Source: Escherichia coli
GTDB taxonomy: Bacteria; Pseudomonadota; Gammaproteobacteria; Enterobacterales; Enterobacteriaceae
Length of the DNA stretch: 64,000 bases
NCBI RefSeq assembly: GCF_041886205.1
Contig: NZ_CP169029.1
Strand: one strand, 5' to 3'
The translations under genes were made by a program, and so were the position numbers. The notes under the pieces are model-generated. The model did no database searches, was not told where the DNA came from, and worked only from the letters and a program-made list of their open reading frames with translations. This document shows positions 11,131 through 47,470 of the stretch, piece by piece (the stretch's first letter is position 1; each line of letters starts with the position of its first letter).

Positions 11131-11353
11131 TGGCGTTCCTTTATTTGTGAGTGCTGAATAAGTATAGGAAAAAACGAAGCCCTTTGCCGTTATCCATAAA
11201 CGATTAAGATAAATCGGAAGATATCATTCACTTAGTGTATATTTTTCTGGATATGTCGTTTTATTGCTACTGATGTATTGCCACGCGAAACTAAAAAATA
11301 TATCGCAACACACGGTAATCTCCGCGCACCTTTTCTTACCTGATTATTCCCCC

Positions 11354-29014: not shown

Positions 29015-31015
29015 TCATCCTTGTTGCTGAAGCATGGGGAATAATTGTTCGCAAAGCAAAACACCGTTATTCATTGCTTCTACCCGAGCCTCGCTTTCTG
29101 TATTACGAAATTGTGCCAATACATGTGCCAGCCGATAAAAACCCATCGCGGTGAGGTCATTCGCCAGCAACTCTGCCTGACCAATAGCACTCTGTTCCTG
29201 ATAGCGCCAGCCGTTATGGAGCAGTTGAATAAGTAACGCCTGGCAGCGCATCAGCAACTGAGGAGCGGTAGACGGCACAGGCAGAACGCTGGCAGAAGGT
29301 AGCGGTGCCACAGGCGTAGTTTCTGCGTCCAGCGCCCAGGCGCGGGTTTTTGTCATCATCACCCGTGGTTCCAGTGTCAATTGCCCCTCAACAAAACTGA
29401 CAAAGCCAGAAACCAGACTCACGGGGTCCTCTGTTTGTTGTAACAGAGCTGCCATGCGTTCAACAGCAAAGGGCGAACAGGTAGAGGCTGGTAGGGATAA
29501 TGTCAGCACGTTATCTTCACCTTCGCCGCTGATTACCTGCGCATCCAGCGTTTGGCGGCTGCTATCCCAACCGAGTGAAATACACTCAGCGACCGGCAGA
29601 ATAAATAAGTTATCGACCTGATTAAGAGGCCGTATGCAGGCGGGGGGACGCTGGCGTAAATATTCCCGCAAAGCCACAATGCCCGGCTGGCGTAACGGCG
29701 CGCTCAACATTTGCCAGGCATCAGGCGACAGCGGCACAACGCTGCTTAAGCGGTTGCGGGTAGCTAACAGCAGCTCGCCATCGGCACTGCGTTTTGCTGC
29801 TTGTGAAACAATTTGCCCGCCCGCTAGTGCGCCAGCCTGAAAACTAAACAGCCGACGCGTAGCTGCCGGTGAGTTTTCCTGTTCACTTCGCGGCCAACTG
29901 CGCGAAAGGTGCAAAATACTGCCGGTGTCGGGATCGGTAAACCAGATGCGTAAACCATAATGCTCAATATCCTGCCAGCAACGCATACCTAAAGACACCA
30001 GCCGCAGATGATCAAGCTTTGCTTCTCCGGCAATGCCAGAGCCAACGACCGTGCGCCACGGCACAGGAGGAACTTCACCAATACTGTCGCGCCGGGCCAT
30101 CTCTTGTGCGCAATTTAATCGACTGTTTAATGCCGCAAGCTGACGTAAGCATTCTCCGGCATGATAGTGGCTGGCGCGGGCGTGGAAGGCATCAACGCTT
30201 GCCCGTAGCTGTCGTAGTGATTCACTCACCCATCGCCAGTTGCAGCGTTCCGCCGCCTGCTGCGCGCGACTAAAAGCGGCCTCGTAGTGAATAAGCGGCT
30301 GGCTGATGCCGCCCAGCCATAATGCCTGGCTTAATTGCTGAACATATTGACGACACGCGTTACCCTCGTCGTTGGCAAACGGATCGTTAGATGATGTGAC
30401 GTGTTCGCTGCGCATCTGCCAGATTAAATGAGTCAATTCCGCTTGCTGCGCTTTTGCCTGGACAAAGGCCTGTACTGCCAGTACGACATGTTCGCAAAGT
30501 GTGCCTTCAATACAATCACAACGGGCGAAACGAATGCTGCTACGGGAATAAAAACGCACATCGCTCATCGGTAAGCGGGCAGAGGGAATTTCGCCCGGCG
30601 TACAGAACAACTCAATGGTGATGCCTTTAGCGACCAGCGCCTGTGCGCGTTTGCGGGTAGCATCGGGAAGGGTAGCCAGTTCTTCCAGCCAGATTGCCGG
30701 ATCCCACTCTTCTTCTTTTTCCGTAGACTGAGTGGTGGCACAAAGTCGTTGATAACTTAACACCAGCATCACGCGATGACGGCACATACCGTTGGCCCCG
30801 CAACTGCACTGAGCCTCTTTCAGTGCCTGGCCGTTCGCCAGCTGGGTACGGACACCGTCACTGAAGGTGGCGATTAAAGCGTCGTTCTCATGGCTGATCT
30901 CCGGGACGTTGCCATTTTCCAGTTCCTTAAGACTGCGCTTAACAAAACCGGCATTGCTTAACGCCGTCAGGGCCTGCGGTGTCAGTTCTAATAATTCCGG
31001 ACGTAGTGAATTCAT
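29015..31015 (-). CDS. yehQ: SWIM zinc-finger protein YehQ (two SWIM motifs)
   Basis: The start MNSLRPELLEL at 31015 makes an ATGA overlap with the yehP stop. Two CxC-x5-CxH motifs: CSCGANGMCRH and CDCIEGTLCEH. Confidence 0.85.
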   Translation of the reverse strand: MNSLRPELLELTPQALTALSNAGFVKRSLKELENGNVPEISHENDALIATFSDGVRTQLANGQALKEAQCSCGANGMCRHRVMLVLSYQRLCATTQSTEKEEEWDPAIWLEELATLPDATRKRAQALVAKGITIELFCTPGEIPSARLPMSDVRFYSRSSIRFARCDCIEGTLCEHVVLAVQAFVQAKAQQAELTHLIWQMRSEHVTSSNDPFANDEGNACRQYVQQLSQALWLGGISQPLIHYEAAFSRAQQAAERCNWRWVSESLRQLRASVDAFHARASHYHAGECLRQLAALNSRLNCAQEMARRDSIGEVPPVPWRTVVGSGIAGEAKLDHLRLVSLGMRCWQDIEHYGLRIWFTDPDTGSILHLSRSWPRSEQENSPAATRRLFSFQAGALAGGQIVSQAAKRSADGELLLATRNRLSSVVPLSPDAWQMLSAPLRQPGIVALREYLRQRPPACIRPLNQVDNLFILPVAECISLGWDSSRQTLDAQVISGEGEDNVLTLSLPASTCSPFAVERMAALLQQTEDPVSLVSGFVSFVEGQLTLEPRVMMTKTRAWALDAETTPVAPLPSASVLPVPSTAPQLLMRCQALLIQLLHNGWRYQEQSAIGQAELLANDLTAMGFYRLAHVLAQFRNTESEARVEAMNNGVLLCEQLFPMLQQQG

Positions 31016-32148
31016 GACTGAAGATTCTCCGCAAGCCATGATGCCAGCTCGCCCGGCGTCATGGCGGCTATTTGTGCGCCGACATTAACCAGCGCCTGGG
31101 CCGTATCGTGGTCATAGCAAGGTGTTGCGTTGCTATCGAGCGCCGCCAGTCCCAGCACTTTGATGCCGCTCTGGACACACTTTTTCACCTGATGCGTGAG
31201 TAATGATGATGAACCCCCTTCGTAAAAATCGCTCACGAGGATAATGACGCTTTTTGCTGGTTGTTCAATAAGTTGCCGACCATATTCCACGGCACTGGCG
31301 ATATTGGTTCCGCCGCCTAATTGCACTTTCATTAATAACTCTACCGGATCGGCAACGTCTGCCGTGAGATCGACGACGCTGGTGTCAAACGCCACCAGAT
31401 GGGTACGAATACCGGGTAACTGCCATAAACAGGCCGCCATCACCGCTGAGTGGATCACCGAGTCCACCATTGATCCGCTTTGATCAACCAGTAAGACCAG
31501 TTGCCATTGTTCACTGTGGCGCTTAATACGGCTGTTAAAGCGGGGGGATTCGATATACAACTTGCCGTGTTGCGGGTGCCAGTGTTGCAGGTTGGCGCGC
31601 AGAGTACTTTTGAAATCAAAGTTTCGCGCCAGTAGAATAAATGAGCGGCGACGGCGATCGCGGACACCAGAAAAAGCCTGACGAACCTCCTTTGCCAGTT
31701 GTGCCATAATTTCTTCCACAACCTGGCGCACTATCCGGCGGGCGGCAGCCAGTACTTCGGGATTCATCAGATGTTTGGTGTGCAAAACGGCGCGTAGCAG
31801 GCTTTCAGAAGGCTGCATACGTTCCAGCACGTCGAGATTCGTCACCACATCTTCAATGCCATAGCGCAGTACGGCATCGCTTTCCAGCCGCTCAATCACC
31901 TGTTGCGGAAACAGCGTGTGAATACTGTTGATCCACTCAGGAGTGGTGAGATTTGAGCCACCTAATCCACCGGAGCGTTCACCACGCTGGAGCCGTTCAG
32001 GATCGCGCCCATACAGCCACTCCAGCGCGTGGTCTATCTGCCGGGCGTTGTCATCCAGCCCACAAAGGGTCGTTTCTGCCGCTTCGCCAAGAATTAATCG
32101 CCAGCGTTGTAGCTCACGGGTGGTCAGAAGATCGTTCAGTTCAGACAT
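31012..32148 (-). CDS. yehP: von Willebrand factor A domain protein YehP
   Basis: Internal start MSELNDLLTTRELQRW gives 378 aa. MIDAS motif DQSGS (LLVDQSGSMVD), plus the later GGGT and SDFYEG elements. 8-nt overlap with the yehM stop. Confidence 0.87.
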   Translation of the reverse strand: MSELNDLLTTRELQRWRLILGEAAETTLCGLDDNARQIDHALEWLYGRDPERLQRGERSGGLGGSNLTTPEWINSIHTLFPQQVIERLESDAVLRYGIEDVVTNLDVLERMQPSESLLRAVLHTKHLMNPEVLAAARRIVRQVVEEIMAQLAKEVRQAFSGVRDRRRRSFILLARNFDFKSTLRANLQHWHPQHGKLYIESPRFNSRIKRHSEQWQLVLLVDQSGSMVDSVIHSAVMAACLWQLPGIRTHLVAFDTSVVDLTADVADPVELLMKVQLGGGTNIASAVEYGRQLIEQPAKSVIILVSDFYEGGSSSLLTHQVKKCVQSGIKVLGLAALDSNATPCYDHDTAQALVNVGAQIAAMTPGELASWLAENLQS

Positions 32149-34420
32149 GGAAAACTCCCCAGTGTTGCAGCGATGCCAGTGCCTGCTGTTCGAGTTGTTG
32201 ATGATGTGCAATGGCTTGCGGTGGACAATGCAACGGTATTTGCAGCGCCGAAACGGGAAGTTGCGCCAGTTGATAATGCTCAAGCACCTGATGCGCCAGC
32301 GTCCCGCGTTCTCGTGGTGGTAGCCAGGCCATCGCCGCGCGTAAATCGGGCAGGGCATTGATAAAATCGGCATCACTCAGTTGATTTAAATGACTGCTGA
32401 AACCGGCGATAAATGCCGGCTGACAAGCCAGTTGATGACGGGCTAATGCCAGCAAACCGTGCAGCGCCTCGCCGGATTGGGCCGGGGATAACTGCGTCAG
32501 CATTGTCAGCGCCGCTTCGGCACTAGCGTTGGGATGTTCCAGACGCATCAGTGCGCCAAGAGTCGCGCCGCGATCCAGCGCCGGGGCATGAATCGCCTGA
32601 CTGCGGCGCTCCAGTAAGGCTACCGCCGCAGAAAGCGAAACGCCGGATAAGTTAACGCCGCTATGTAGATCGCGCAGGATATGGCAAAGCGCTTGCCAGC
32701 TATGCAGGTGAGCGTGAAACTCCTTTTCATCCGGTCTGCCGTTGGATTCACACAGCCACAGCGTGCGATCGATAGCCGCGCATAACGTCGTTTGTAATAT
32801 CTGCGCGCCTTGCATACCGCTAATTTCATCCAGCCGCCATAAGGCATATAGCACTTCCAGCGCCTGGCCCATTTCGGCAAATTGATTTTCCTGGGCGATT
32901 AATAATGTGAGTTGTTCCAGTAATTGCTCACTAAAGCTCGCCAGGCCCGCTAACGCCGCCTGGCTAAGACATGCGGTAATGCTGCCGATTCCACCCGCGT
33001 CCAGCATATCGGCTTCTAATTTATTGCGTGCGGCTTCCTGGAGTGTTGCACCAAAGCAGGCGGCCTCAATCAATGCCGCATGCTGGCTAAGCGGGCGGGT
33101 TAATTTCCAGCGTTCTTCACCGTTGCCTGCAAGTGTCAGTGTACTTCCCTGCTGGCGTAAAATCCCTGGGATCTCCAGTATTGCCAGCCGATGTAACACC
33201 TGACTTTGCGCTAGTCCATTGGGGTTAAAGCGATTTAAGGTAAGCTGCGCCGGAAGAGAGATTCCGGTACGTTCCAGTTCGCAGGTGACATCTTTTGGCA
33301 GAGGCGGTTGTGGCGTGGAGGGGGCAAGTTTACCGAATCCGTCACCCGCTAATGTGTCTATCAACGTTAGCAGAATCGGATCGGTATCGGGATGAATAAC
33401 TCCGCGATAGCTCCACGGCAACGGCGCGTTCAAGGCTTCTTTAATCAGCGAGCCTGCTATGGCATCCAGCCAGTCAGTGCGTAACGGTAGTGTATGACCG
33501 CGCAACTGTGCCAGTGCCATTGCATGCAGATGTGCGGCAGCCATATCAGCGGTAGAAGCGGGCAATTTGTGCTGGCGCAAACGGGTGAGAACCGTTTTTA
33601 GCAGTTGTTCTCCCGCCTGCTGTAAGCCCCACTGCCAGCACCAGTTTTGCCAGACCGGAGCAGGCATTCCGGAAAGGTATCCTGCCAGCACATCAAGGCG
33701 CTTTTCGCTGTATGGCGTGAGATAACAACCTGTAACGGCATCATCCTGTGAGGGCAATTCTGGCTTGTTAATTTCCTGCGGGCATTCGCGCCACATTTTT
33801 GCCAGTGCCGGAGCGTGCCAGCCACCGCAGACGACTAACACGTCGCCATTGTTTTGCAGCATCGCCCATCCAATCCAGCGGGCCATAAAGGCTTCGCGCT
33901 GACGATTGAGAGCATCTCCGGGGGAATCGCCCCGCAGTTGGGCAAAATAGTGCGCCAGCGCAGAGGGTAATGCAGTTTGCTGGCTTTCATCTTCGAATAA
34001 GTGATCCCACAGGGTGTCGCTGTTATCCATGCGGGTGGCACGCAGCAGCAAGGCCTGGCTTTCCTCTTGCGTATCAGGCGAATCGTCCTCTTCTTCACTC
34101 TGCGCCCAGCAAGGCAAATCGATGAAGTAAGTTTGTGCCTGAATACGACGTGCGGCTTGTAGCGCCTGCCACTCCGGCGAAAATTCAGCAAATGGCGTCC
34201 AGGCACCGCGCCCGGGGGCCGTACCGTCCTGATACTGGCAATAACTGTAAATAGCTACCGGAAGCTGGTGGGCTAAAAACAGTTCGTCTACCCGGTCATT
34301 AAAATCAGCCGGGCCTTCAATCAACACGTATCGTGGCCGCTGGCTTTCGATTAACGATTTCACCAGCCGGGCGCTGGCCGGGCTATGATGCCGGATGCCG
34401 ACAATTAACGGCTCGCTCAT
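32141..34420 (-). CDS. yehM: Large uncharacterised protein YehM (759 aa)
   Basis: Internal start MSEPLIVGIRHHSPASARL gives 759 aa and lies 10 nt after the yehL stop. I can see no recognisable catalytic motif. The C-terminal half is mostly helical and Leu/Ala-rich. Confidence 0.85.
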   Translation of the reverse strand: MSEPLIVGIRHHSPASARLVKSLIESQRPRYVLIEGPADFNDRVDELFLAHQLPVAIYSYCQYQDGTAPGRGAWTPFAEFSPEWQALQAARRIQAQTYFIDLPCWAQSEEEDDSPDTQEESQALLLRATRMDNSDTLWDHLFEDESQQTALPSALAHYFAQLRGDSPGDALNRQREAFMARWIGWAMLQNNGDVLVVCGGWHAPALAKMWRECPQEINKPELPSQDDAVTGCYLTPYSEKRLDVLAGYLSGMPAPVWQNWCWQWGLQQAGEQLLKTVLTRLRQHKLPASTADMAAAHLHAMALAQLRGHTLPLRTDWLDAIAGSLIKEALNAPLPWSYRGVIHPDTDPILLTLIDTLAGDGFGKLAPSTPQPPLPKDVTCELERTGISLPAQLTLNRFNPNGLAQSQVLHRLAILEIPGILRQQGSTLTLAGNGEERWKLTRPLSQHAALIEAACFGATLQEAARNKLEADMLDAGGIGSITACLSQAALAGLASFSEQLLEQLTLLIAQENQFAEMGQALEVLYALWRLDEISGMQGAQILQTTLCAAIDRTLWLCESNGRPDEKEFHAHLHSWQALCHILRDLHSGVNLSGVSLSAAVALLERRSQAIHAPALDRGATLGALMRLEHPNASAEAALTMLTQLSPAQSGEALHGLLALARHQLACQPAFIAGFSSHLNQLSDADFINALPDLRAAMAWLPPRERGTLAHQVLEHYQLAQLPVSALQIPLHCPPQAIAHHQQLEQQALASLQHWGVFHV

Positions 34421-34430
34421 GCATCTTTCC

Positions 34431-35519
34431 TCACGGCAGGCGGTGGCGGGCTTGATAATAAGCCTGCCAGTGAGCTTCTTTATGTGTGGCGACTCGCTGT
34501 TCGAAGTAACGGCGCAGACGAGCGCGATCTTCTTCGTTATCTTTGACGATGGTTCCGGCAATACAGTCCACCAGATCGGCTGGCTCACCTGCGCGATTCG
34601 CTAAAAACCAGGCGCGGACGCCCACAGCGTGGGCCACGTTCACGGCTTCAGCGGTGGACATAATCGCTGTTAGTGTATCCATTGACGTTTTCTTTTCGCC
34701 GTTGGCACGCAGATCGCGGAAGGTGCGGACCAGTAACTCCAGTACCGCGTCAGGCACTTTATGCGGAATACCGCTATGGGCCAGCAAACGCGCCGAAGCA
34801 CTGGCGACCAGTTCCAGCTCCTGAGCGAAATCCATAATCGGAAAGACAGTTTCAAAATCGAAGCGACGCTTTAGCGCAGCACTCATCTCATTGACGCCGC
34901 GATCGCGCGTATTGGCAGTGGCAATAATATTAAAGCCTTCCCGCGCATAGAGTTGACTGGCTTCACCAGTGAGTTCCGGCACCGTCATCACCCTGTCAGA
35001 AAGCATACCTAACAGACAGTCTTGCACTTCCAGCGGTGTACGCGTTATCTCTTCAAAACGGACGATTTTGCCGTCGCGCATTCCCTGGTAAAGCGGGGCA
35101 GGGACCAGCGCTTCCGTTGATGGACCATGATTGATAAGCAGAGCGTAGTTCCAGCCGTACTTGATTTGATCTTCAGTGGTAAATGCGCCGCCCTGGATGG
35201 TTAACCCGGCATCGCCGCTAATAGCGGTTGCCAGTAATTCAGACAGGAGAGATTTTGCGGTGCCCGGTTCCCCCACCAACATCAAACCGCGCCCGGTGGC
35301 AAGAGTGACTAACATACGTTCGACAGCAGAGGGACTAATCACGACTTTACGGCTAATATTTTGCGCGCTATCGCCAAGGATAAAAGCACGTGCCGCAGGC
35401 AAACTTAACTGCCAACCGGGCGGGCAAGGTGCGTTATCATTTTGTTTTAATTTTGCCAGTTCATCGGCGTATAACACAGCGGCAGGCGGACGCTGCAGAT
35501 GATTATTCTGCGGTGACAT
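34431..35519 (-). CDS. yehL: MoxR-type (AAA_5-like) AAA+ ATPase YehL
   Basis: Internal start MSPQNNHLQRPP gives 362 aa. Walker A GEPGTAKS, a Walker B-like KIVRFEE, and sensor-1 IIATAN. Confidence 0.88.
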   Translation of the reverse strand: MSPQNNHLQRPPAAVLYADELAKLKQNDNAPCPPGWQLSLPAARAFILGDSAQNISRKVVISPSAVERMLVTLATGRGLMLVGEPGTAKSLLSELLATAISGDAGLTIQGGAFTTEDQIKYGWNYALLINHGPSTEALVPAPLYQGMRDGKIVRFEEITRTPLEVQDCLLGMLSDRVMTVPELTGEASQLYAREGFNIIATANTRDRGVNEMSAALKRRFDFETVFPIMDFAQELELVASASARLLAHSGIPHKVPDAVLELLVRTFRDLRANGEKKTSMDTLTAIMSTAEAVNVAHAVGVRAWFLANRAGEPADLVDCIAGTIVKDNEEDRARLRRYFEQRVATHKEAHWQAYYQARHRLP

Positions 35520-35630
35520 ATATTCATCCCTGAAATGTATTAATGAAATAAACGATATTTTACGCGCAATAAATGTTTGGCGCATTAGTTGTTTGAGCGA
35601 AAAATATCTGGAAAGCAGATCACAGTAAAT

Positions 35631-35660
35631 AAAAAAACCTGCTGGTGAGGCAGGTTCTTT
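35631..35660 (-). terminator. Strong intrinsic terminator between yehK and yehL
   Basis: On the minus strand: aacctgc-ctcacca-gcaggtt followed by ttttttt. An A-run on the other side makes it potentially bidirectional. Confidence 0.7.
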
Positions 35661-35825
35661 TATTTACTATTTTCAGGCCTAACACCACAGCCTGTGCAAC
35701 ATCGTGTTCCAACGAACGAATTATAACCACGGCTGGACCCCGTTGCAATTAAGATAATGAGATTTATAATCCAGACCGTTGGGACGTTGCGCCGGATCGG
35801 ACCAATTTGAATTATTTAGAGTATA

Positions 35826-36143
35826 TTATTCTATTTCTTGGTTGAATATATTCTGTAGTTCACGATTAAAAATTGCTATTACAGTTTCAGGTGATTCACC
35901 TCGTAATTTCCGCTCATCAATACACTCATCTCTTATATAAATCAACGCATCATTTATTAGCGGGTCAGCATCTTCTCGATCACGTTGATGAAATGTTGGA
36001 TGTAGCCGGAATCGCTCCAGTCGATAGACGGAACCTGTAAATAATTCAGAGCATTTATGGATCTCAAGTCTGAAGGAAAACGGATCTTCAGGTACAGGGA
36101 CCTCATAATCGTAAATAGCAACCAGCTCTTTTTGCACGATCAT
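35826..36143 (-). CDS. yehK: Small uncharacterised protein YehK (105 aa)
   Basis: 105-aa ORF, visibly AT-rich compared with its neighbours. No signal peptide or TM segment. Acidic. Confidence 0.75.
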   Translation of the reverse strand: MIVQKELVAIYDYEVPVPEDPFSFRLEIHKCSELFTGSVYRLERFRLHPTFHQRDREDADPLINDALIYIRDECIDERKLRGESPETVIAIFNRELQNIFNQEIE

Positions 36144-36202: not shown

Positions 36203-39200
36203 TTAATGGAAAATGACGTCGGGTGCGCTTAACGCCTCACTCAAATCAAACACATCAAGTGCGGCAAAAGTGACGGATTTATTGTCACGGTACACCCGAA
36301 GAGAACGGAAGCTCATCAGCGCTTTGCTATCAGCACTGTAGTAGTTAAAACCGGGTGAAAACTTAAGGACCAGCCGGTACTCACCTAAGTCATAGACAAA
36401 TGCGTCCTCATAGCCTGACTCCCAGCCTTTGTATCGCATTCCCATAAGCTGCCCAACGGTAGCGGATTTACCTTCCCAGCGAGTCAGGCTGTTACTGGTT
36501 GACTCGTCAGGTGTGAGCAGCACCGTGCGGCGCGACAACTGGCGAAAAGGCGGCATAATTTCGTAATCGGCAAAAAGCTGTGCAAATTCACTGCGCATTT
36601 CTGCTGTCATTTCTAACGGGTGGGCAATGCCAATCAGAGCGTCCGCAGGCAGGTCAATGGGCTCATCTTGTGCATTGCAGAATTCCCCCTCTGCGGCCAC
36701 ACGAAAGGTGTTGAGTAAACGACGTGGTTCATTTGCCGGATAAACCCCCCATATTAATCGCTGGGTAACCAGGCGGGTAAAGGGATGATTAACAAAAAGA
36801 GAATGAAAATCTGCCAGCGACCAGCGTCGGGTGGTGCGTAGGGCAGTTTCAAGACGCGGGAGCAGGTTTTTGCTCACCTGAGTGGCATCTTTTTTTAGCC
36901 CTTTTAGTCGGGCCAGTGCCTCGGGCGCTTTCAGTTGATCGTCATCGGCGCGCAACCGGGGAACACTTTTCTGGCGAACGTTTTGTTGATCGTAGATAAC
37001 CGGGTTGAGGTTTTCATCGAAGCGAACGGTAAACTGCCGGGGACCAAAATCAAAAATCAACGCCTGCGGATCATCAAGACCCAGTGTTGGGACTAATCTG
37101 TCCGCTAACTCTTCCTGGCTTAGCCCGCGATTTTCTGCGACCACCTGAAGAAATTCCGCTGCGTTTTCACGTAATGAAGAGGATTTCGCCCGTTGTGATA
37201 CATGATGCAGCTGTATCAGCGCCATATCATTATTCATCAGGGTGAGTATATTCAGACCACTGACAGCACGGGCAGATTTGCCTTCTTGTGGCCAAGCGAG
37301 GATCTGTGTTGTTAGATCCCGTGCCGTGCTTTCGTCACCAAAGAGACTTAACGCCAGAAATGCCCAGTTGTCTTTTGCGGGGGCACCAGCTTGTTGCCAT
37401 GCGGTGAAGAGATCCCAGGCAAAAGCTGCCAGCGTTTGCGGCTGGCAGAACGTTTTCAGTTGTTCCAGCCCGCTATAAAAACGTCCCCCTTGGGTAAAGC
37501 GCAGCATTTCGCCAATAATTTCCAGAGCGTCATCGGTAACAGGTTGATTATTAGTGATAAGGCGCGGCCTGGACCACATTTGCGGATGCCAGAAATCAGG
37601 GGCTTTTGGAATGCGTGCCGGGTAAATCTCTATTGGACTCTGTTTAAGTAATTGTTCCAGGGCAGGCCATACATCAGCGCGATCCCAGCGGTTTGCCACG
37701 GTTTGTAGTAATACGCCATGTCCCTGTTCGTAAAGTAAACGCAGGGCAAGTAATGCAGCTTCGCTATTATCGCTGGATTTAGTGAAGACAAGAGGGATAA
37801 GTGCAGTAGCCGTATGTTCCGGCCATTGTAAAATCCACTGGCGAGCCAGATCACGCTGCGCCGCGAAACGTCGCCAGACGCGGGCAACAGGCAGCGCCAG
37901 TTCTGTTGCGCCGAAATGAATCAGCAGCGGAAATATCTCTTGTGGATGTCGGGCAAAGGCGGTGTTTAATCCAGGCAAAGCATCGGTAGCCAGCACACTT
38001 AACAGATATTCCACCCCAGTGTAATGAAAATCAGCATCGACAATTTGTTGCCAGCACGATACCGCCATTTCGCGCGGCATCTGCGCGATAAGGTACAGAT
38101 TCCAAATCCCCCAACGCTTTTCATTACCATAGTAAAATTCGTGCTGAAAAGTTCGCCACCCTTCCATCAACGCAATGCAATCTTGTGCCAGTAATGCTTT
38201 GGTGGCTTCTTCACGATACTGTTTAGATTTGGCCTGATGCGCGTGATAAGTACGCAATAGTCCTATTGATGTGTATTCTTGCAGTTGCTGAGCATCAAAG
38301 GCATCCAACTGTCCATTAAGAAGATGCTTATTAAATTCCAGGCTATGAACGTCAAAACCTAATTCCCGCAAGAAGGTATCCGCCCCTCTCTTAGCAATAC
38401 GTTCGTCAAAAGACATGGCGCTAAAATGGTCAATTGCAGTTTGCTGTTCCGGCGTCCAGTGTTTATTCGGCGACCTGTACGTTTGCGGTGCAAGCGTAAG
38501 ATCAGGCAGCGAAAAGTGAGGTATGGAAGTCTTTTTCTTCCTCCCACGCCATGGTGGTGAAACGAGGATTTCAGGCATTTGGCTGTTATCGGTACTATCA
38601 ATAACCGGTTTGGGCGGTGCCAATAAATAACTATTCAGTACTGCCCGGGCTTGAGTACTTAACCACTGCATCACCTCTTCTGCCAGTTGTGGCTGCGATG
38701 CCATCAGCGTTTGTAACAGCGTACGCCAGTATTCATCTCGAGCTTTTTGCTGGGCAGGCAGCTTTTTGTCTTCGATGATTGGATAACCAGGGCGGGCTGG
38801 TGGTTCTTTTAACGCCAACAGTTCTGCCAGTGCCGCGAGCGTCGCGTGGGGGAAGTTTTTACTGTATTTAGCCACACGTTGCAGGCTGGGTTTGTTTTTA
38901 TCAGCCACCAGTAGCAAGGTGCGGATGACCTGCGGATGGTTAATTTGTACCAACAGACTGCCGCAATCTTCTTTATGGGCATACATCGCGAGGCGCGGAA
39001 TGGCTGCCAGTCCTTGTTCGCGCAAAAGGGCGGCGCAGGCCGCGTAGCCGAAGTGGTTTTCATGCGACATGTAGCTGGCTTCGCGATCGCTAAATATATC
39101 CTGACTCCAGTAGTGATCGAGTTTCCTCACCGCTGTGGGGTCATTAGCAACAACTTTTAGCCACTCCTTAGAATGATAATGAGTCCGTGGGCATTCAAGG

Positions 39201-39850
39201 CCTATCAACTCATTGGCGATTTCTGGTTTTTCCGGGAGGATCAGCGCAATAAAAGGGCGGCGAACTTTGGTTATTCCTGGCAGTGCGGCAATGAGTTTGT
39301 CGGCGCAACGCTGCCAGCAGCTTTCCTCTGCCAGAGAGAGATGCTTACGCAGTCGGAGATCGAATTCGTTATAGGTTTCTGATCGATAACCATAGCCATA
39401 GTCCTCGTTCTGATACTGCAATGTCACTACCAGAGGATCACTCTCATAACACCGCGCAATAAACTGGCGTGCAATCACCACCTCAGTCGCATATTCCAGT
39501 CCCTCTTGTTGGACGATTTCGTCGAGCAACTGTTGGCTGTCATTTTGCGCGATACAGGCTAGTGCCGCCATTGTGCGGGCCGGGACTGAGGGTTTGTGTT
39601 CGCCGATCAAGTTGATGGCCTGCGTAATGGCGGACTGCCACTCCAGTGAAAAATTTTCATAACGCCAGACAATGTTTTTTTTCTTCTCAGCTTTTTGTAG
39701 CAATTCATCACCCAGTGTCTGAATGATGCTTTCAGTGATAACAGGCACCGGTTCGCCCGGCCATTTGCGATGACTGAGTGGTGTTTTGCCTTTTTTATAT
39801 TTCAGTTCCAGTTGGGCGTTATCCGCCAGCCACGGTAATTCCTTGTCCAT
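36203..39850 (-). CDS. yehI: MolR/YehI-family giant protein YehI (1215 aa); lacks the N-terminal WGR-like module
   Basis: Uninterrupted 1215-aa ORF. It aligns to the upstream paralogue from about residue 97 (LPWLADNAQ vs LPWLADGAQ) through the C-terminus. The start is 9 nt after the upstream stop, and that spacer contains aggaaagag (SD). Confidence 0.88.
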   Translation of the reverse strand: MDKELPWLADNAQLELKYKKGKTPLSHRKWPGEPVPVITESIIQTLGDELLQKAEKKKNIVWRYENFSLEWQSAITQAINLIGEHKPSVPARTMAALACIAQNDSQQLLDEIVQQEGLEYATEVVIARQFIARCYESDPLVVTLQYQNEDYGYGYRSETYNEFDLRLRKHLSLAEESCWQRCADKLIAALPGITKVRRPFIALILPEKPEIANELIGLECPRTHYHSKEWLKVVANDPTAVRKLDHYWSQDIFSDREASYMSHENHFGYAACAALLREQGLAAIPRLAMYAHKEDCGSLLVQINHPQVIRTLLLVADKNKPSLQRVAKYSKNFPHATLAALAELLALKEPPARPGYPIIEDKKLPAQQKARDEYWRTLLQTLMASQPQLAEEVMQWLSTQARAVLNSYLLAPPKPVIDSTDNSQMPEILVSPPWRGRKKKTSIPHFSLPDLTLAPQTYRSPNKHWTPEQQTAIDHFSAMSFDERIAKRGADTFLRELGFDVHSLEFNKHLLNGQLDAFDAQQLQEYTSIGLLRTYHAHQAKSKQYREEATKALLAQDCIALMEGWRTFQHEFYYGNEKRWGIWNLYLIAQMPREMAVSCWQQIVDADFHYTGVEYLLSVLATDALPGLNTAFARHPQEIFPLLIHFGATELALPVARVWRRFAAQRDLARQWILQWPEHTATALIPLVFTKSSDNSEAALLALRLLYEQGHGVLLQTVANRWDRADVWPALEQLLKQSPIEIYPARIPKAPDFWHPQMWSRPRLITNNQPVTDDALEIIGEMLRFTQGGRFYSGLEQLKTFCQPQTLAAFAWDLFTAWQQAGAPAKDNWAFLALSLFGDESTARDLTTQILAWPQEGKSARAVSGLNILTLMNNDMALIQLHHVSQRAKSSSLRENAAEFLQVVAENRGLSQEELADRLVPTLGLDDPQALIFDFGPRQFTVRFDENLNPVIYDQQNVRQKSVPRLRADDDQLKAPEALARLKGLKKDATQVSKNLLPRLETALRTTRRWSLADFHSLFVNHPFTRLVTQRLIWGVYPANEPRRLLNTFRVAAEGEFCNAQDEPIDLPADALIGIAHPLEMTAEMRSEFAQLFADYEIMPPFRQLSRRTVLLTPDESTSNSLTRWEGKSATVGQLMGMRYKGWESGYEDAFVYDLGEYRLVLKFSPGFNYYSADSKALMSFRSLRVYRDNKSVTFAALDVFDLSEALSAPDVIFH

Positions 39851-39859
39851 GCTCTTTCC

Positions 39860-42800
39860 TTATTCAAACAGGGCTTCAATATCGTTAATTAGCTCGCTGG
39901 CGGTGATGGCATCGAGTACGGAGAACTGCGCTTCCTGTGTTGAATTACTCCCCCAGCCATAGCTTTCCGCTTTGCCTTCCCATAACCACAGCTTGCTTAA
40001 GAGCTGCTCAGCGCTAAGTTCGGCTGGTGACATACCCACCGCAAAACCTTCGTCGATTTCCATGATTAACGACCAGCGACCCAAAGGTTTGATCATCCAT
40101 CCGATCCAGCCTCCATCCTGTGGTTCGCCCTTTATCCAGCCTTTATTCGCCAGCCCCATGACCCGACCACTCGGGCATTTTCTGCCTGCCCAGCGGGTCA
40201 GTTCACTGGCATTGCGCTCGGCTTCTGTCAGGGCGTAGCTGTTACGGTCGAGCTGGCGGAACGGTGGTAGCAGTTCGTAGTCGGCAAAAAGCTGACCAAA
40301 GGCGGCAGCATCCGTTGGTGATATTTCCAGAACGTGAGGAGTGCCGATAGAGATATCGCCTTCCGGCAGGGTGAAAAGATCATCGTCAGCGGTGCTGTAG
40401 CTGTTATCTTCTGCTACGCGAAAGCAAGCCAGTAGCTGGTTTTCGGCGCTATAAACGCCCCAAATCAGACGGCGGGTTAAGTGACGAACCAGCGGATGCT
40501 CAACCAGGAAGAGCTGGAAGTTTTCCAGCGACCAGCGGCGGCGCAGGCACATGGCGGATTCCAGCCTTGCTACCTGCTGGGCGGCGACGGTACGCGCATC
40601 TTTTTTCAGCAGTTTGTAGCGGTTAACAGCATCGTTCGCCTGTGATTCATCATCGCTTTTGTTTGGTTTGGGCAGGTCTTTCAGACGGCTGCCGGAAGCG
40701 TCACGCACAAACGGTTTTAAGGTTTCATCAAAGCTGACGGTGAACTGGCGTGGGCCGAAATCCAGCAGCAACGAACCGTTATCATCCAGACCGAGATCTG
40801 GTGCTAACCGATCTTCAAGCTCCGCCACCGTGAGTTCGCGGCTCTCGGCAATATCGGCAATTTTCTCTTTTGCCCGCTCCTGTAAAGCTTTGAATTTCAG
40901 TTTCTGAGCAATGCCGTTAAGCTGCATCAGAGCAATATCACTACCGATAGCGGCGAGGATATCAAGCCCGACGGTGGCGCGTTTATGCTGGGATTCGCCA
41001 GGCCAGGCGCGGATTAATGGCGTCAGTTTGCGGGCGGTGTCATCGTTACCGAGAACGCCTAACGCAGTGAACGCCCAACTCTCTTTCGACGGCGCGCCAG
41101 CGGTCTGCCAGGCGGTAAACAGATCCCAGGCAAATTCAGCCAGTGAGTCGGCGGTACAGGCGTCTTTCACCTGTAATATTCCCGGATACAGAACCTCTTC
41201 CTGAGGGAAGCGGAGCATTTCACCGAGGTGGAGGAGGGCTCTATCTGGCAGTGATTGGGCGTTTGCTTTTAATACCGGGCGCGTCCAGAGCGATGGTTGA
41301 TAAAAGGCCGGAAGAGTGGGGATTTTTGTCGGGTGATTATCTAAGGGATCGAGCGCAAGCAGAGCGTTCACCGCATCGGTTACTTCCGGCTGGTTATAAC
41401 GTCGGGCGATTTCTTGCAGTAATGGCTGATGACCGTTTTCGGTAAGCATACGCAAGGCAGCGCGGGCGTTATCCTGTGCTTCACCGGCTTTGCCGAGCGC
41501 CGCAGGCAGCAGGCCGGTAAGGGCATGTTCCGGGTATTTCAACAGCCAGCTACGGGCGTTTTCGCGTAGCGTTTTGAGTTTGTTGAAGGCACGGGCAATC
41601 AGTGGCGCTAATTCGATAGCCGCAAAATATTGTGCTACAGGCAGCGCTTCTTGCGGATAGCGAGATGCTGAGTGGATAAAACCTGTTAAACCAGCAAGTC
41701 GAAGATGCAACATTACTTGTGTTGCACCTGTATGTGGTTCTTTACTAAGGATGTTCCACATCTCGATAGCTTTATTAATGGGTAAAACATGGAGTGAAGA
41801 AAGATTCCATTCGCCCTGATAAGGGGAGTTATAGGACTTAAAAGCATCAATCAGCGCTGAATAATCTTCACGCTGCAAGGCATCCAGTGCTATTTCTGGA
41901 ACATCAATATAGCCTCTATGTTTGTTCCAATCCCAGCGGTTGAATCCCAGGGAGGTCAGAAAAGCTTTTTCTCCCTCAGCTTGCTGATGAGGTTGCCAGT
42001 TATGCTGCACTTGCAGTGTTTTGCTTTTTGTTTCATTTATTGTACAGAAGGATTCTAGGGATAATGGTGCTAAATCCAGCACCGAAATCGTCGATTTTTT
42101 CTTTTTAGCCAGCCAGGGCGGTGAGACTAATACGGCAGGCAGCATATCAGCGTTCGCATAAACTGAAGGTTGTGTCAGTTGTTGCTGGCATGACTTAAGA
42201 ACGGTAACTGCCGGGGCAGATAGCCAGGAGATTACCCGTTCTGCTAATGTTGGTTGTGAGATAAGCATTGTCATTAGCATCATGCGCCAGCGCTTTTCAT
42301 CTTTTTTTGCCAGAAGTTCTGCTAATGCCGCCAGCGCTGCATGTGGAAAGCGAACGAAAGCCTTTGTCATGCGATCGTGGCAACGCTTTCCCTGCTCGCT
42401 TGCATGGATAAGTAGTGTAAGTGCCTGCGGGTGGTTGATATGCATCAACACTTCACCACATGTGTCACCAGCAGCGTAAGGAGCAAAACGGGCCAGCGCA
42501 GCGACACCTTGCTCCTTGAGTATCGTTGCGCACCAGATTTTACCTCCGTAATAATCATCAAATACCTGCCCAGGCTGTCCTGGATAGTATTTTCCCAGTT
42601 CTGCCAATACCTGCTCGTCAGCGGCCGTCAGTTTTAGCCATTCCAGCGCATATAACCCTTTTTGTCCGCAAAGATGTCTGGCAATCTCATGAGCTATTTC
42701 TGGTTTTTCCGGCAACAATAGTGCAACCAGCGGCTGGTGCCAGGTGGGCATGTTTCCGAGAGCGGCAATCAGTTTGTCGGCGCAGCGCTGCCATACATCG

Positions 42801-43618
42801 TCATTTGCAAGTGAGAGATGCTTACGCAGGCGCATTTCAACCGAAGCGAAGCGTAACAGATAGCCAGGCTGCCTGTTATCCGGGGTAACCGTAATGAGAT
42901 GGGCATCATAATCCCAGTCGAAGCGGATGAATTGCAATGCAATGACAACCTCAGTGGCATATTCCAGACCACCTTCCTGGACAATTTGATCCATTAACTC
43001 TTCATGATCGTTACGATTGAAGCCTTGTTCCAGCGCAACCAGTACCGCCAGTACCATCGGAGGTAGCGTGGTGCTAATTGGCGAGTCGATAAGGCCTACT
43101 GCTTGTGTAATTGCCTGCTGCCAGTCGAGTGAACAGGTACTGTAATCGAAGGTGAGCACCTTTTTAAAACGCCGGTGAGTATTCGCGGCAACGGTGCGTA
43201 GCAGGGTTAATTCATCCTCCTGCTGCACCGGATCGCCAGGCCAGCGTCGATGACTGAGTGTGGTTGGCGCAATCTCTGTCGGTAACATGATTTGGGCACC
43301 GTCTGCCAGCCAGGGGAGGAGGTCACCAGCAAATGCTGGTTTGTCTTGTGGCAAAGGGGTAATTTCAGGGCATTCAATAACCTGGCCGGGTGCAAATGTC
43401 GCTGTCATCACGGATACTTCTTCTACGTAGCCCTTTTTTGTTTTCTCCGCAATCAGCTTCAGCTCCGCTTTTTCCGCCGCCGCAGCATCTGCAAAGCTTT
43501 TTACCTGACTTTGCCCGTTACTGCCGACTTTACCCCAGTTAATATGCAGCTCGTTTCCCTGCTGCTCCACCGCCCAGAATTTATGTGATTTTTCGTCCTG
43601 ATAAATATAGGTTTTCAT
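39860..43618 (-). CDS. Intact MolR-family protein (1252 aa): N-terminal WGR-like domain plus a long helical/DUF4132-type body
   Basis: Uninterrupted ORF. The N-terminus MKTYIYQDEKSHKFWAVEQQGNELHINWGKVGSNGQSQVKSF fits the WGR-domain pattern (FW..., WG+xG..GQ). The C-terminal roughly 500 aa are about 75-80% identical to the neighbouring split paralogue. Confidence 0.85.
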   Translation of the reverse strand: MKTYIYQDEKSHKFWAVEQQGNELHINWGKVGSNGQSQVKSFADAAAAEKAELKLIAEKTKKGYVEEVSVMTATFAPGQVIECPEITPLPQDKPAFAGDLLPWLADGAQIMLPTEIAPTTLSHRRWPGDPVQQEDELTLLRTVAANTHRRFKKVLTFDYSTCSLDWQQAITQAVGLIDSPISTTLPPMVLAVLVALEQGFNRNDHEELMDQIVQEGGLEYATEVVIALQFIRFDWDYDAHLITVTPDNRQPGYLLRFASVEMRLRKHLSLANDDVWQRCADKLIAALGNMPTWHQPLVALLLPEKPEIAHEIARHLCGQKGLYALEWLKLTAADEQVLAELGKYYPGQPGQVFDDYYGGKIWCATILKEQGVAALARFAPYAAGDTCGEVLMHINHPQALTLLIHASEQGKRCHDRMTKAFVRFPHAALAALAELLAKKDEKRWRMMLMTMLISQPTLAERVISWLSAPAVTVLKSCQQQLTQPSVYANADMLPAVLVSPPWLAKKKKSTISVLDLAPLSLESFCTINETKSKTLQVQHNWQPHQQAEGEKAFLTSLGFNRWDWNKHRGYIDVPEIALDALQREDYSALIDAFKSYNSPYQGEWNLSSLHVLPINKAIEMWNILSKEPHTGATQVMLHLRLAGLTGFIHSASRYPQEALPVAQYFAAIELAPLIARAFNKLKTLRENARSWLLKYPEHALTGLLPAALGKAGEAQDNARAALRMLTENGHQPLLQEIARRYNQPEVTDAVNALLALDPLDNHPTKIPTLPAFYQPSLWTRPVLKANAQSLPDRALLHLGEMLRFPQEEVLYPGILQVKDACTADSLAEFAWDLFTAWQTAGAPSKESWAFTALGVLGNDDTARKLTPLIRAWPGESQHKRATVGLDILAAIGSDIALMQLNGIAQKLKFKALQERAKEKIADIAESRELTVAELEDRLAPDLGLDDNGSLLLDFGPRQFTVSFDETLKPFVRDASGSRLKDLPKPNKSDDESQANDAVNRYKLLKKDARTVAAQQVARLESAMCLRRRWSLENFQLFLVEHPLVRHLTRRLIWGVYSAENQLLACFRVAEDNSYSTADDDLFTLPEGDISIGTPHVLEISPTDAAAFGQLFADYELLPPFRQLDRNSYALTEAERNASELTRWAGRKCPSGRVMGLANKGWIKGEPQDGGWIGWMIKPLGRWSLIMEIDEGFAVGMSPAELSAEQLLSKLWLWEGKAESYGWGSNSTQEAQFSVLDAITASELINDIEALFE

Positions 43619-43630
43619 TGCTAAATCCTT

Positions 43631-45820
43631 TTAATCAAACAGTGATTCAATATCGTTAATCAGCTCGCTGGCGGTGATGTCGTCGAGCACGGAGAAGGGA
43701 TAAACCGATTTGCGCGGCGTCAGTTTGCACAACTGAATGTGCTCAATTTTTTGGCTATCGCTGATTTCGGTGACGGGCAATCCAACGCAGAAGCCTGGTG
43801 TCACACTCAGTTCGACGTAGCCATCATCCACAGATTTATAAAATGAGTAATAGCCGCCACCATCCAGCACATCGCCCCGTTGCCAGCCTTTATTCATCAG
43901 CCCGGCGACGCGCCCACTCGCTGCCTGGCGACCAGCCCAGCGCTGCAAATCGCTGCTGCTTTTTTCTGTCTCAGAGAGCTGAGACCAGGGGCGATCAAGT
44001 TGACTGAATGGTGGCAATAGTTCGTAGTCAGAGAACAGTTGTGCAAATTCAGCAGCCTGCGGGGCCGGGATTTCCAGTACATGCGGGATACCGATACTGC
44101 CCTGCGCAAGGGTTAACGGGTTATCCTGACCGTCGCTAAAACTGCCATCCTCCGCCACGCGGAAACAGGAAATAAGCTGATTATCAGCGTCATAAATGCC
44201 CCACATCAGACGTTGGGTGATATGACGAACCAGGGGATGCTCAACCAGAAACAGGCGGAACTGTTCTGCAGTCCAGCGGCGACGCTGACACATGGCGGCT
44301 TCCAGACGCGAAATCTGTTGTGCAGCTACCGTGCGGACATCTTTTTTCAACAACTTGTAGCGATTTACCGCTTCCTCAGCCAGCGTTTCATCATCGCTTT
44401 TGTTCGGTTTGGGCAGATCTTTCAGACGGTTGCCGGAAGCTTCGCGCACAAACGGTTTTAAGGATTCATCAAAGCTGACGGTGAACAGGCGTGGGCCGAA
44501 ATCCAGCAGTAGTGAGCCGTTATCATCCAGACCGAGATCGGGGGCTAACCGGTCTTCCATCTCTGCGACGGTGAGCTGGCGGCTTTCGGCAATCTGGGCG
44601 ATTTTAGTTCTAGCCTGATCCTGCAAGGCTTTAAATTTTAGCTTTTGCGCAATACCGTTAAGTTGCATCAGGGCGATATCGCTGCCGATAGCAGCAAGAA
44701 TATCCAGCCCGACAGTGGCGCGTTTATGCTGAGATTCCCCCGGCCATGCGCGGATGAGCGGGGTGAGTTTGCGGGCGGTGTCATCGTTACCCAGAATCCC
44801 CAGTGCGGTAAATGCCCAGTTATCTTTGGCTGACCCGCTTGCAATCTCCCAGCTCAAGAAGAGATCCCAGGCGAAATCGGCAAGAGACTGCGGGGTACAG
44901 GCCTCGATTACCTGTGTTATCCCCGGGTAAAGGGTGGCTTCGCGGGGAAAAGAGAGCATGGTGCACAGTTGCAGGATAGCTGAATCCGGAAGTGCCTTGC
45001 CGTTACTGCGCAGAAGCGGGCGGTGCCATACTTCAGGGGTACACCAGGCGGGGAGTTTAGCGATTTTCTGCGGAAAATTATCGAGGGGGTCGCTGTTAAG
45101 AACATCTAACAAACCCGTAAGCACTTCTGCCTGATTATAGCGGTGGGCAATTTCTTCCATTAACGGCTGATGCCCATGATGAGCCAGATAGCGAATTGCC
45201 GTAGCGGCGTCTTCACGCTCACTACCTGCTTTTCCCAGCACGGAAGGCAGCAGGCCCGTAATGGCATGTTCCGGATAGGTTAACAACCAACGTTCAGCAA
45301 CATCACGTACAGATTTAAGCTGACGAAAGGCGCGAGCCATTAAGGGGGCTACTTCGGTTGCGCCAAAACGTGCCGCTAAAGGAATGGCTTCCTGAGGTAC
45401 GACTAAGGCGCGACGCAGCAAGCCGGGCAATGTCGGAAGACCGTAATATTCCACTACTTCACATGCGTTAATCAGATGTAGGTGAGTCAGTGCGTTCCAT
45501 ATTTTCAGTGCTTTATTTTCTGATAACTGAAGCAATACCGACACATTGACAAGGATATGACTTGCCCACCGAGGTTTATCCCAGATCTTTAATAAAGCTT
45601 CGTAATTGTCCTGCTCGAAAAAATCAATGGCAGCCTGAGGTATACCCCAACCAAGCTCTTCGCAATGGAAGTTCAACAAATCCAGGATATCTTTCGCTGA
45701 TGGGGATGGCGCAGATGGCTCAGTCAGATTTTTTGTTGCGGGGATAGATTCAGGGGGGGAAGAGGTAATACCCGGAGAGTGAGGTTGATACCAGCAATCT
45801 TTTTCTTTTTTTCCAACCAT
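43631..45820 (-). pseudogene. C-terminal portion (729-codon ORF) of a third MolR-family gene, split by a frameshift
   Basis: Homologous to residues of about 530-1252 of the intact paralogue. Overlaps the N-terminal ORF by 97 nt in another frame. Adding one C to the C7 run at 45753-45759 fuses both ORFs into 1246 codons. Confidence 0.75.
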
Positions 45821-47370: not shown

Positions 47371-47470
47371 TCTGCATCCCTGTAATTTTATCCAGTTGAA
47401 TGCAGATGCTACCAGTATTTATGCGGGTTAGAGAGAGACAAAATCGCAAGAAAACAACTTTAGGAATTTA

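Follow-up and report, generated by a model that had tools for sequence, protein, structure and literature searches.

The closest described systems to the one considered here are the MoxR-vWA pairs RavA-ViaA, CbbQ-CbbO, NorQ-NorD and CoxD-CoxE, in which a single-module AAA+ gene adjoins a gene for a von Willebrand factor A (vWA) protein with a complete metal ion-dependent adhesion site (MIDAS). A second point of comparison is Midasin/Rea1, a single chain of 4,700-4,900 residues with six concatenated AAA modules, a long helical solenoid and a MIDAS, which acts on assembly factors of the pre-60S particle that carry a ubiquitin-like (UBL) domain. We have analysed the yehL-yehM-yehP-yehQ (yehLMPQ) operon of Escherichia coli, contained in a 64,000-nucleotide stretch of chromosome (contig NZ_CP169029.1, assembly GCF_041886205.1; hereafter the window). 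These are four of the larger remaining E. coli 'y-genes', and YehL types a MoxR subfamily of no known function. An original prediction made from the DNA alone had likened the operon to AAA+/vWA machines. The likeness is correct, and it was established earlier rather than being new: the MoxR ATPases have been divided into seven subfamilies, of which the 'YehL subfamily' has YehL as its type, and E. coli K-12 has only one MoxR ATPase besides YehL (PMC3893208).

The yeh locus shares with the MoxR-vWA pairs its adjoining AAA+ and complete-MIDAS genes, and YehP falls in the CoxE-named family. It differs from them in having three extra near-obligate partners: a DUF5682 protein with a TraB/Tiki-like domain (YehM), a protein with two SWIM fingers and an oligonucleotide/oligosaccharide-binding (OB)-like module (YehQ), and WGR-DUF4132 giants. 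It also lacks a linked metalloenzyme client, its Walker B carries Glu-Glu, and in sequence YehL is nearer to Midasin than to the solved CbbQ, NorQ and RavA. YehL, YehM and YehP together recapitulate the AAA_5 ring, helical solenoid and MIDAS of Midasin, and in some bacteria solenoid and MIDAS form one chain. This likeness is functional and architectural only. Unlike those of Midasin, the parts are encoded by separate genes, the MIDAS lies on YehP, and YehL has one AAA module, such that its ring would be a homo-oligomer; the module further adds a hydrolase-like domain and DNA-type partner domains.

We propose that yehLMPQ and the WGR/DUF4132 proteins constitute a five-component, ATP-driven protein remodeller of the MoxR/Midasin type that acts on DNA-associated targets in the DNA-damage response. 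We regard the chances of this reading as even. Its architectural part is quite probable, and its DNA-damage part is a more tentative suggestion, with a little less than an even chance of being right.

A five-component module in at least five phyla

A YehM alignment was used to search a single genome of each species and yielded 374 confirmed relatives; 80 loci were fetched and searched by tblastn with six E. coli proteins. YehL, YehM, YehP and YehQ are encoded in that order on one strand in all 72 loci with enough sequence, and the vWA, SWIM and YehM-type proteins that the original prediction had treated as the company of YehL are present in all of these loci. A DUF4132 gene stands beside this core in 73 of 74 loci (one copy in 52, two in 10, three in 8 and four in 3), usually directly upstream of yehL, downstream of the core in Burkholderia and, in Agrobacterium vitis, inside the operon between the DUF5682 and vWA genes. 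The operon had been described as a four-gene AAA+/YehM/vWA/SWIM set. The four genes and their order stand, but the unit is larger, with five components that include the near-obligate WGR/DUF4132 giants.

The module occurs in Enterobacterales, Burkholderiales, Neisseriales, Xanthomonadales, Desulfuromonadaceae, a deltaproteobacterium, Aeromicrobium and Propionibacteriaceae, and the five-gene set is also found in Streptomyces and Bacillus mycoides, on records annotated as plasmids or chromids. It ranges over alpha-, beta-, gamma- and delta-proteobacteria, Actinobacteria and Bacillus, at least five phyla. Deinococcus taeanensis, Rhizobium etli and Hymenobacter have a variant operon of SWIM, DUF5691, AAA, DUF5682 and vWA genes, and in two of these three a small open reading frame (ORF) lies between the AAA and DUF5682 genes. 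When YehQ and DUF4132 were compared profile to profile with the variant-type SWIM protein and DUF5691, only the SWIM finger aligned (E 0.005). DUF5691 was rejected as a counterpart of either the YehQ C-terminus or DUF4132, there being no profile-profile link.

Median identity to the E. coli proteins is 75% for YehL, 69% for YehP, 46% for YehM, 35% for YehQ and 32% for DUF4132. The ratio of nonsynonymous to synonymous substitution rates (dN/dS) is 0.02-0.14 over the four core genes, within Escherichia and beyond, as expected of purifying selection, and 5202 of the 5426 complete E. coli genomes (96%) carry the module, at one fixed position on the chromosome. Such strong selection and retention argue against the possibility that yehLMPQ is a cryptic, decaying, horizontally acquired locus that is functionless in E. 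coli, as do catalytic motifs that are all intact and coupled starts that are preserved (both described below). Decay would account for the H-NS silencing of the locus, the molR frameshift in this window, the many in-frame duplications and deletions of YehQ among E. coli strains, and the transposon insertion in the DUF4132 region that is tolerated in ST131. On balance we consider it highly unlikely.

ATPase, solenoid and MIDAS in separate genes

Pfam searches gave AAA_5, DUF5682, VWA_CoxE and SWIM, in agreement with the domain calls of the original prediction. YehL matches AAA_5 at 1.2e-34 (119.7 bits, cut-off 22). Its motifs were compared in 18 diverse orthologs from gamma-, beta- and delta-proteobacteria and actinobacteria, among which the two Walker motifs, the sensor-1 region ATANTRD and the arginines of RRFDFE are invariant. 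The Walker B, which had been singled out for carrying FEE in place of DE, indeed reads VRFEE in all of them. Glu-Glu is kept as well in the Bacillus, Streptomyces, Agrobacterium, Deinococcus, Hymenobacter and Rhizobium partners, at 39-63% identity; because these include Gram-positive and variant-type proteins, the alignments identify it as a hallmark of the whole subfamily rather than a local oddity. The exchange of Asp for Glu appears conservative, and YehL is therefore probably still an active ATPase. The protein is 72-77% identical across proteobacteria and actinobacteria, with a dN/dS of 0.02-0.05. Among solved structures, Midasin is the closest to YehL in sequence (E 1.7e-9); the same PDB sequence search returned no CbbQ, NorQ or RavA chain at 1e-5.

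YehP matches VWA_CoxE at 8.3e-71 (238.4 bits, cut-off 26.4). All five MIDAS residues, D222, S224, S226, T281 and D307, are invariant in the 18 orthologs, within the motifs DQSGS, GGGT and S/T-D-F. YehP is 61-70% identical across phyla and its dN/dS is 0.05-0.08; no relatives were found in PDB sequence searches. At 31275-31290 on the minus strand, a sequence change weakens an internal Shine-Dalgarno-like stimulator in yehP. The predicted frameshift product would lack D307, the last MIDAS residue, and the peptide context of this site is not conserved outside Escherichia.

YehM, which matches DUF5682 at 2e-98, had been called an unknown giant. It is not featureless. In an AlphaFold2 model with a predicted local distance difference test (pLDDT) score of 82.7, a TraB/Tiki/ChaN/EreA-like N-terminal domain, structurally closest to the haem-binding protein ChaN, is followed by a C-terminal solenoid, and the last 300 residues match the HEAT/ARM-type solenoids of TAF6, VPS35, CWC22 and symplekin. 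The residues R10-H11-H12, E35, S81-P-E83, D101, R175-E176 and G199-G-x-H202 are invariant in 22 orthologs. None of these site residues varies in six phylum-level lineages at 24-35% identity either, and G8-x-R-H11, E35 and G199-G-x-H202 are likewise constant there. We take the last three to be the GxxH / E / GxxH catalytic or ligand-binding pattern of Tiki, TraB and EreB. Pfam TraB_PrgY_gumN scored 13.2 bits against YehM (E 0.083), under its cut-off of 26.8 bits, and PDB sequence searches with a YehM profile found no relatives. YehM differs from the TraB/PrgY/Tiki/ChaN/EreA superfamily in that some 500 additional residues are joined to its N-domain and its gene is part of an AAA+/vWA operon. 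The DUF5682 family comprises about 3,300 clusters at 50% identity among 1.84 billion representatives. Of the 150 best of these clusters, five separate ones consist of DUF5682-VWA_CoxE fusion proteins, and such YehM-YehP fusions are a classical sign of physical association, here read from sequence.

The family memberships of YehL (AAA_5/MoxR) and YehP (CoxE) raise the alternative that the module inserts metal cofactors or matures metalloenzymes, with the AAA+ ring and MIDAS protein opening a client for metal loading as in CoxD/CoxE, NorQ/NorD, CbbQ/CbbO, CobS/CobT and RavA/ViaA. All characterised MoxR-vWA pairs work in this way (PMC3893208). The ChaN match of YehM would agree with this alternative, as would the historical name of a neighbouring gene, 'molybdate metabolism regulator', and a weak NCBIfam similarity to GvpN and a cobaltochelatase subunit, although those scores fall far under their cut-offs (33 vs 267 bits and 17 vs 779). 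The surroundings of the module tell against it. We found no conserved neighbour outside the module among 129 flanking proteins from 26 genera or in seven annotated contexts from five phyla, and no metalloenzyme or cofactor-synthesis gene recurs there; the commonest flanking family accounts for 6 of the 129. The proteins that do recur with the ATPase are of the SWIM, OB-like, WGR and DUF4132 types, and the DNA-damage operators described below are hard to square with cofactor loading. Metal insertion is distinctly unlikely on this evidence. The original prediction had left two functional readings in competition, metal insertion or remodelling and recognition of nucleic-acid or protein substrates; that opposition does not persist in its even form, since the RPA/HIN-like OB module, the WGR domains and the damage operators favour nucleic-acid-linked recognition and no conserved metalloenzyme neighbour speaks for the other.

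DNA-type domains in the partner proteins

YehQ was predicted to carry two SWIM fingers about 90 residues apart. Both signatures are invariant, and the distance is 96 residues. The first finger matches Pfam SWIM at 9e-8 with 31.9 bits (25.1 when scanned alone; cut-off 19.6), and the second, scanned alone, scores 17.7 bits, just below the cut-off. Pfam gave no match to residues 200-666. The YehQ model (pLDDT 87.4) consists of two SWIM units, a helical bundle (~216-311), a beta-rich module and a C-terminal helical bundle. In Foldseek searches, the beta module matched p202 HIN1 (E 7.7e-4, probability 0.99) and RPA70 DBD-A/B bound to single-stranded DNA (2.5e-3, 0.97), and further top matches were the HIN domains of MNDA and AIM2, baculovirus LEF-3, archaeal and fungal RPA, POT1, CST and RADX. 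All of the top matches are tandem OB-fold DNA binders, aligned over about 230 columns. The central part of the YehQ model thus resembles the tandem OB pair of RPA70 DBD-A/B and the HIN-200 proteins (AIM2, p202, MNDA), from which it differs in having no sequence similarity, in being flanked by two SWIM fingers and helical bundles, and in that its DNA binding is predicted only. Because the TM-scores are modest, the matches support the OB fold class for the modelled module, short of proving DNA binding.

The length of YehQ varies from 605 to 709 residues among E. coli strains. The in-frame events fall in the helical-bundle region (residues ~190-340, nt 29990-30450, minus strand) and comprise two duplications, one of 43 aa in tandem (P0270) and one of 23 aa (P0273), and deletions of ~45-100 aa (P0288, P0318, P0328, P0332); the SWIM fingers and OB module are spared.

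The WGR domain of PARP1-3 contacts DNA breaks. Both upstream giants of the window, yehH-like and molR-like, match Pfam WGR (E 1e-17 and 3e-18), and by a hidden Markov model seeded on them 77 of 111 DUF4132 ORFs, in 72 of 78 loci, start with a WGR. These sequences are canonical (RFE..G.S.KFWE...WGRIGT.GQ...KGY). MolR, YehH and most DUF4132 partners therefore open as PARP-type WGR proteins do (WGRIGTxGQ...KGY), but the giants have no PARP catalytic domain and continue for about 1,100 residues past the WGR, with DUF4132 at the end. YehI starts exactly at the 'PWL' motif that in its relatives lies past the WGR and linker, which by sequence makes it a WGR-less paralogue. PDB sequence searches with YehI and with a DUF4132 profile detected no solved relatives of DUF4132 proteins. 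A lone DUF4132 giant is encoded on a Rhodococcus pyridinivorans plasmid (locus L088, 5505-8813) next to a RES-domain toxin pair. No AAA, DUF5682, vWA or SWIM gene lies within 8 kb of it, and DUF4132 proteins can therefore exist without the core.

Partners of this kind could also belong to an anti-phage or conflict system, in which WGR, SWIM and OB domains sense foreign or damaged DNA and the AAA+/MIDAS core activates the TraB/Tiki-like domain of YehM or DUF4132 effectors. The uneven divergence of the module fits such a role, with a highly conserved ATPase and vWA protein (about 75% and 69%) beside a fast-evolving YehQ and DUF4132 (about 35% and 32%), and so does the tandem amplification of DUF4132 to between one and four copies. 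An innate-immune DNA sensor, HIN-200, is the best match of the YehQ OB module; conflict systems with a MoxR-vWA core are known (Pfam bpMoxR, a weak match); the locus is silenced by H-NS, the module is found on megaplasmids, and in other E. coli strains the site hosts the zorO-orzO toxin-antitoxin pair and a resistance transposon. The six proteins have, however, no significant match in PADLOC-DB 2.0, where the sole match is DpdF at E 0.0068, and none bears a recognisable nuclease, TIR, pore or NADase effector. The core is not patchy in E. coli, given its fixed site, and the flanks are no defence islands, with only scattered PADLOC matches among the 129 flanking proteins. The module is also essentially absent from phage genomes, a search of which with YehM gave one weak match and no phage association. 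We consider a defence role rather unlikely. The phage-collection match lies at 11208-12770 of MT835988.1 (Bacteriophage sp., an unannotated 14.2-kb human-gut contig), with 27% identity over 515 residues, and this contig may be a mis-binned bacterial fragment.

Predicted DNA-damage operators

In the window, a LexA box precedes molR (Table 1), a gene listed in the LexA regulon with a known SOS box (PMC6590174). Similar boxes stand before the first DUF4132 gene in two Klebsiella loci; a scan of the 80 loci found LexA boxes only in Escherichia and Klebsiella, and none was found upstream of yehL. The intergenic region before yehL is AT-rich (GC content 0.43-0.45). It is bound by H-NS, and yehL and yehM are upregulated in hns/stpA mutants (PMC3686432).

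In Deinococcus radiodurans, radiation/desiccation response motif (RDRM) operators are present at the genes for a WGR protein, DR2173, and for a DUF4132 protein, DRA0166, which shares an operon with DRA0165; both are induced by mitomycin C in an IrrE/DdrO-dependent manner (PMC8533742). The variant operon of D. taeanensis has an exact RDRM-type palindrome, TTATGTTTCTGGCGTAA, that overlaps the -10 element of a TTGACA-17-TACAAT promoter and lies 20 nt before the first gene; it is the single such site in the locus and arose in 0 of 500 shuffles.

In Streptomyces, the five-gene operon begins with a WGR-DUF4132 gene, and 57 nt ahead of this gene is an exact site resembling RecA-NDp, the PafBC motif (PMC6789036, PMC8223512). 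Exact matches to the provisional consensus used here number two in 142 kb of actinobacterial loci, where 0.025 would be expected. The second, TGTCGGTG-N8-TAGGGT, is in an unannotated record of Embleya sp. NBC_00896 (L091:13491, plus strand), about 4 kb downstream of a DUF4132 gene that stands alone. The motif was not found in the Aeromicrobium, Propionibacteriaceae and Nonomuraea loci, and no alpha-proteobacterial GTTC-N7-GTTC box was found near the operons. A Cheo-like site in Bacillus was set aside, having two mismatches and being statistically undistinctive. Three lineages have predicted DNA-damage operators ahead of the module, namely Enterobacteriaceae with LexA, Deinococcus with RDRM and Streptomyces with RecA-NDp-like sites.

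A model for the module and its weaknesses

In the remodeller that we propose, a hexameric ring of YehL would supply force. The YehM solenoid and the YehP MIDAS would form a client-gripping arm, like the linker and MIDAS of Midasin but split over polypeptides, and this arm would grip an acidic residue of the client. YehQ, through its SWIM and OB parts, and the WGR/DUF4132 giants would bring the machine to single-stranded or broken DNA, or might themselves be its clients. Cleavage or release of the client may fall to the hydrolase-like site of YehM, and overall, proteins on damaged DNA would be removed or remodelled.

One could envision a more specific form of this model: a split Midasin-like extraction machine, recruited by the OB-SWIM subunit and the PARP-type WGR giants and helped by the Tiki-like site, pulls off or cleaves proteins trapped on damaged DNA, as a new arm of the damage response placed independently under LexA, DdrO and PafBC in three phyla. 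So detailed a version is doubtful. In the literature searched, which extended to mid-2026, we found no publication on the five-part module, the variant architecture, the YehM and YehQ folds, the M-P fusions, the WGR rule or the convergent damage operators. If the remodeller reading is true, the module is a new ATP-driven player in bacterial DNA-damage tolerance and a simple prokaryotic model for client grip and extraction by Midasin-type AAA+/MIDAS machines. In either case, an unexplained annotation becomes a concrete hypothesis that is open to E. coli, Streptomyces and Deinococcus genetics.

Several observations weigh against the proposed remodeller. The OB matches of YehQ come from a predicted model and have low TM-scores (0.32-0.36 on the target), OB folds bind proteins and sugars too, and SWIM and WGR domains in bacteria are presumptive DNA binders only. 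The variant operon does without WGR/DUF4132. The E. coli partners often carry damage: molR is frameshifted here and YehQ occurs in variants with in-frame insertions and deletions, and this fits a dispensable function. The E. coli LexA box precedes molR, and a terminator-like hairpin and the H-NS-silenced region part the DUF4132 genes from yehLMPQ, so that any SOS induction of yehLMPQ itself is hypothetical. No damage-regulator site was found in the beta- and alpha-proteobacterial loci or in three other actinobacterial loci, and the RecA-NDp consensus used, TGTCRGTG-N8-TAnnnT, is provisional. Finally, no functional study of YehL, YehM, YehP or YehQ was found in the literature. This last point agrees with the earlier judgement that the combination maps to no characterised machine, as does the lack of any PADLOC or NCBIfam equivalog match and of PDB relatives of YehM, YehP and YehI.

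Gene coordinates, starts and junctions

The window is part of an E. coli chromosome; its segment 29015-35700 has 100% identity to NZ_AP045833.1 and 95-97% identity to the majority of other strains. On the minus strand the order is metG, molR-like, yehH-like, yehI (the three DUF4132 genes), yehK, yehL, yehM, yehP and yehQ, followed by yehR, yehS and btsRS. The coordinates, coupled starts, overlaps and lengths of 362, 759 and 378 aa that had been proposed for yehL, yehM and yehP are correct, both by direct reading of the junctions and by the annotation of the identical genome. In that genome the Prokaryotic Genome Annotation Pipeline (PGAP) chose the same internal starts for all four genes, the N-termini of orthologs agree with them, and a Shine-Dalgarno-like purine run lies 7-11 nt before every start. 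Longer upstream ORFs of 384, 815, 454 and 674 aa were rejected as real genes on the ortholog N-termini, the Shine-Dalgarno positions and the PGAP annotation. With starts chosen heuristically, the overlap between yehP and yehQ is -4 in 65 of 76 loci and that between yehM and yehP is -4 in about 39 of 77; the junction overlaps are kept well beyond chance.

Table 1. Genes, protein motifs and regulatory features of the yehLMPQ region, in window coordinates
Feature	Position	Strand	Description
yehL	35519..34431	-	AAA_5 (MoxR, YehL-subfamily) ATPase, 362 aa; TGA at 34433-34431
YehL Walker A, GEPGTAKS	G83-S90, nt 35250-35273	-	Invariant in 18 diverse orthologs
YehL Walker B, VRFEE	V153-R-F-E-E157, nt 35049-35063	-	Glu for the Asp of canonical hhhhDE; invariant
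yehM	34420..32141	-	DUF5682 protein, 759 aa; ATG 10 nt past the yehL stop, preceded by Shine-Dalgarno GAGGAA
YehM N-domain	residues ~1-235, nt 33716-34420	-	TraB/Tiki/ChaN/EreA-like fold in the model
YehM C-terminal solenoid	residues ~445-759, nt 32144-33088	-	HEAT/ARM-like in the model
yehP	32148..31012	-	CoxE-type vWA protein, 378 aa; 8-nt overlap with yehM, ATGTCTGA, at 32148-32141
YehP MIDAS	D222-Q-S-G-S226, nt 31471-31485, with T281 and D307	-	Complete; invariant
yehQ	31015..29015	-	Protein with two SWIM fingers, 666 aa; ATGA at 31015-31012 common to yehP and yehQ
YehQ SWIM 1	C70-x-C72-x5-C78-x-H80, nt 30776-30808	-	Invariant in 18 orthologs; ligands in 30 sequences
YehQ SWIM 2	C166-x-C168-x5-C174-x-H176, nt 30488-30520	-	Invariant in 18 orthologs; ligands in 30 sequences
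YehQ tandem OB-like beta module	residues ~330-562, nt 29330-30028	-	Predicted model
Hairpin and T-run	35632..35662	-	Intrinsic-terminator-like, aaaagaacctgcctcaccagcaggttttttt; past yehK; same stem in hairpin scan
yehK	35826..36143	-	105-aa orphan between yehI and yehL
yehI	36203..39850	-	DUF4132 giant, 1215 aa; Pfam DUF4132 3.8e-47
yehH-like	39860..43618	-	WGR + DUF4132 giant, 1252 aa; Pfam WGR 1.1e-17, DUF4132 1.6e-51
molR-like	43631..47370	-	WGR + DUF4132 giant; frameshift splits it into 45724-47370 (WGR) and 43631-45820 (DUF4132)
LexA (SOS) box	47378..47397	-	AACTGGATAAAATTACAGGG; CTG-N10-CAG; ends 8 nt before the molR ATG

The operon sequence of this strain belongs to a minority lineage: identity over the operon is at least 99% in 5 of 5,395 E. 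coli records and 95-99% in 5,208. In the same search of E. coli records, operon matches fell on records labelled as plasmids in four places.

Neighbouring genes

The molR-like gene spans 3740 nt, which is no multiple of 3, and an intact protein of 1246 aa is annotated in NZ_AP045833. Among the proteins that flank the beta- and gamma-proteobacterial loci (L021-L068), the commonest families are sigma-70 (6 of 129) and PADLOC 'MzaA'-like proteins (5 of 129, best E 5e-78), and the two may overlap.

The yehK product has no Pfam, NCBIfam or PADLOC match, and among the fetched loci its tblastn matches are confined to those of Escherichia (L002-L005); by this distribution yehK is probably outside the conserved module. 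The spacer between yehK and yehL (35520-35825) is 306 nt long, as in K-12, and about 700-780 nt long in L003 and L005. In O157:H7 and many other E. coli it extends to 1.2 kb and contains the zorO-orzO type I toxin-antitoxin pair (PMC2887945).

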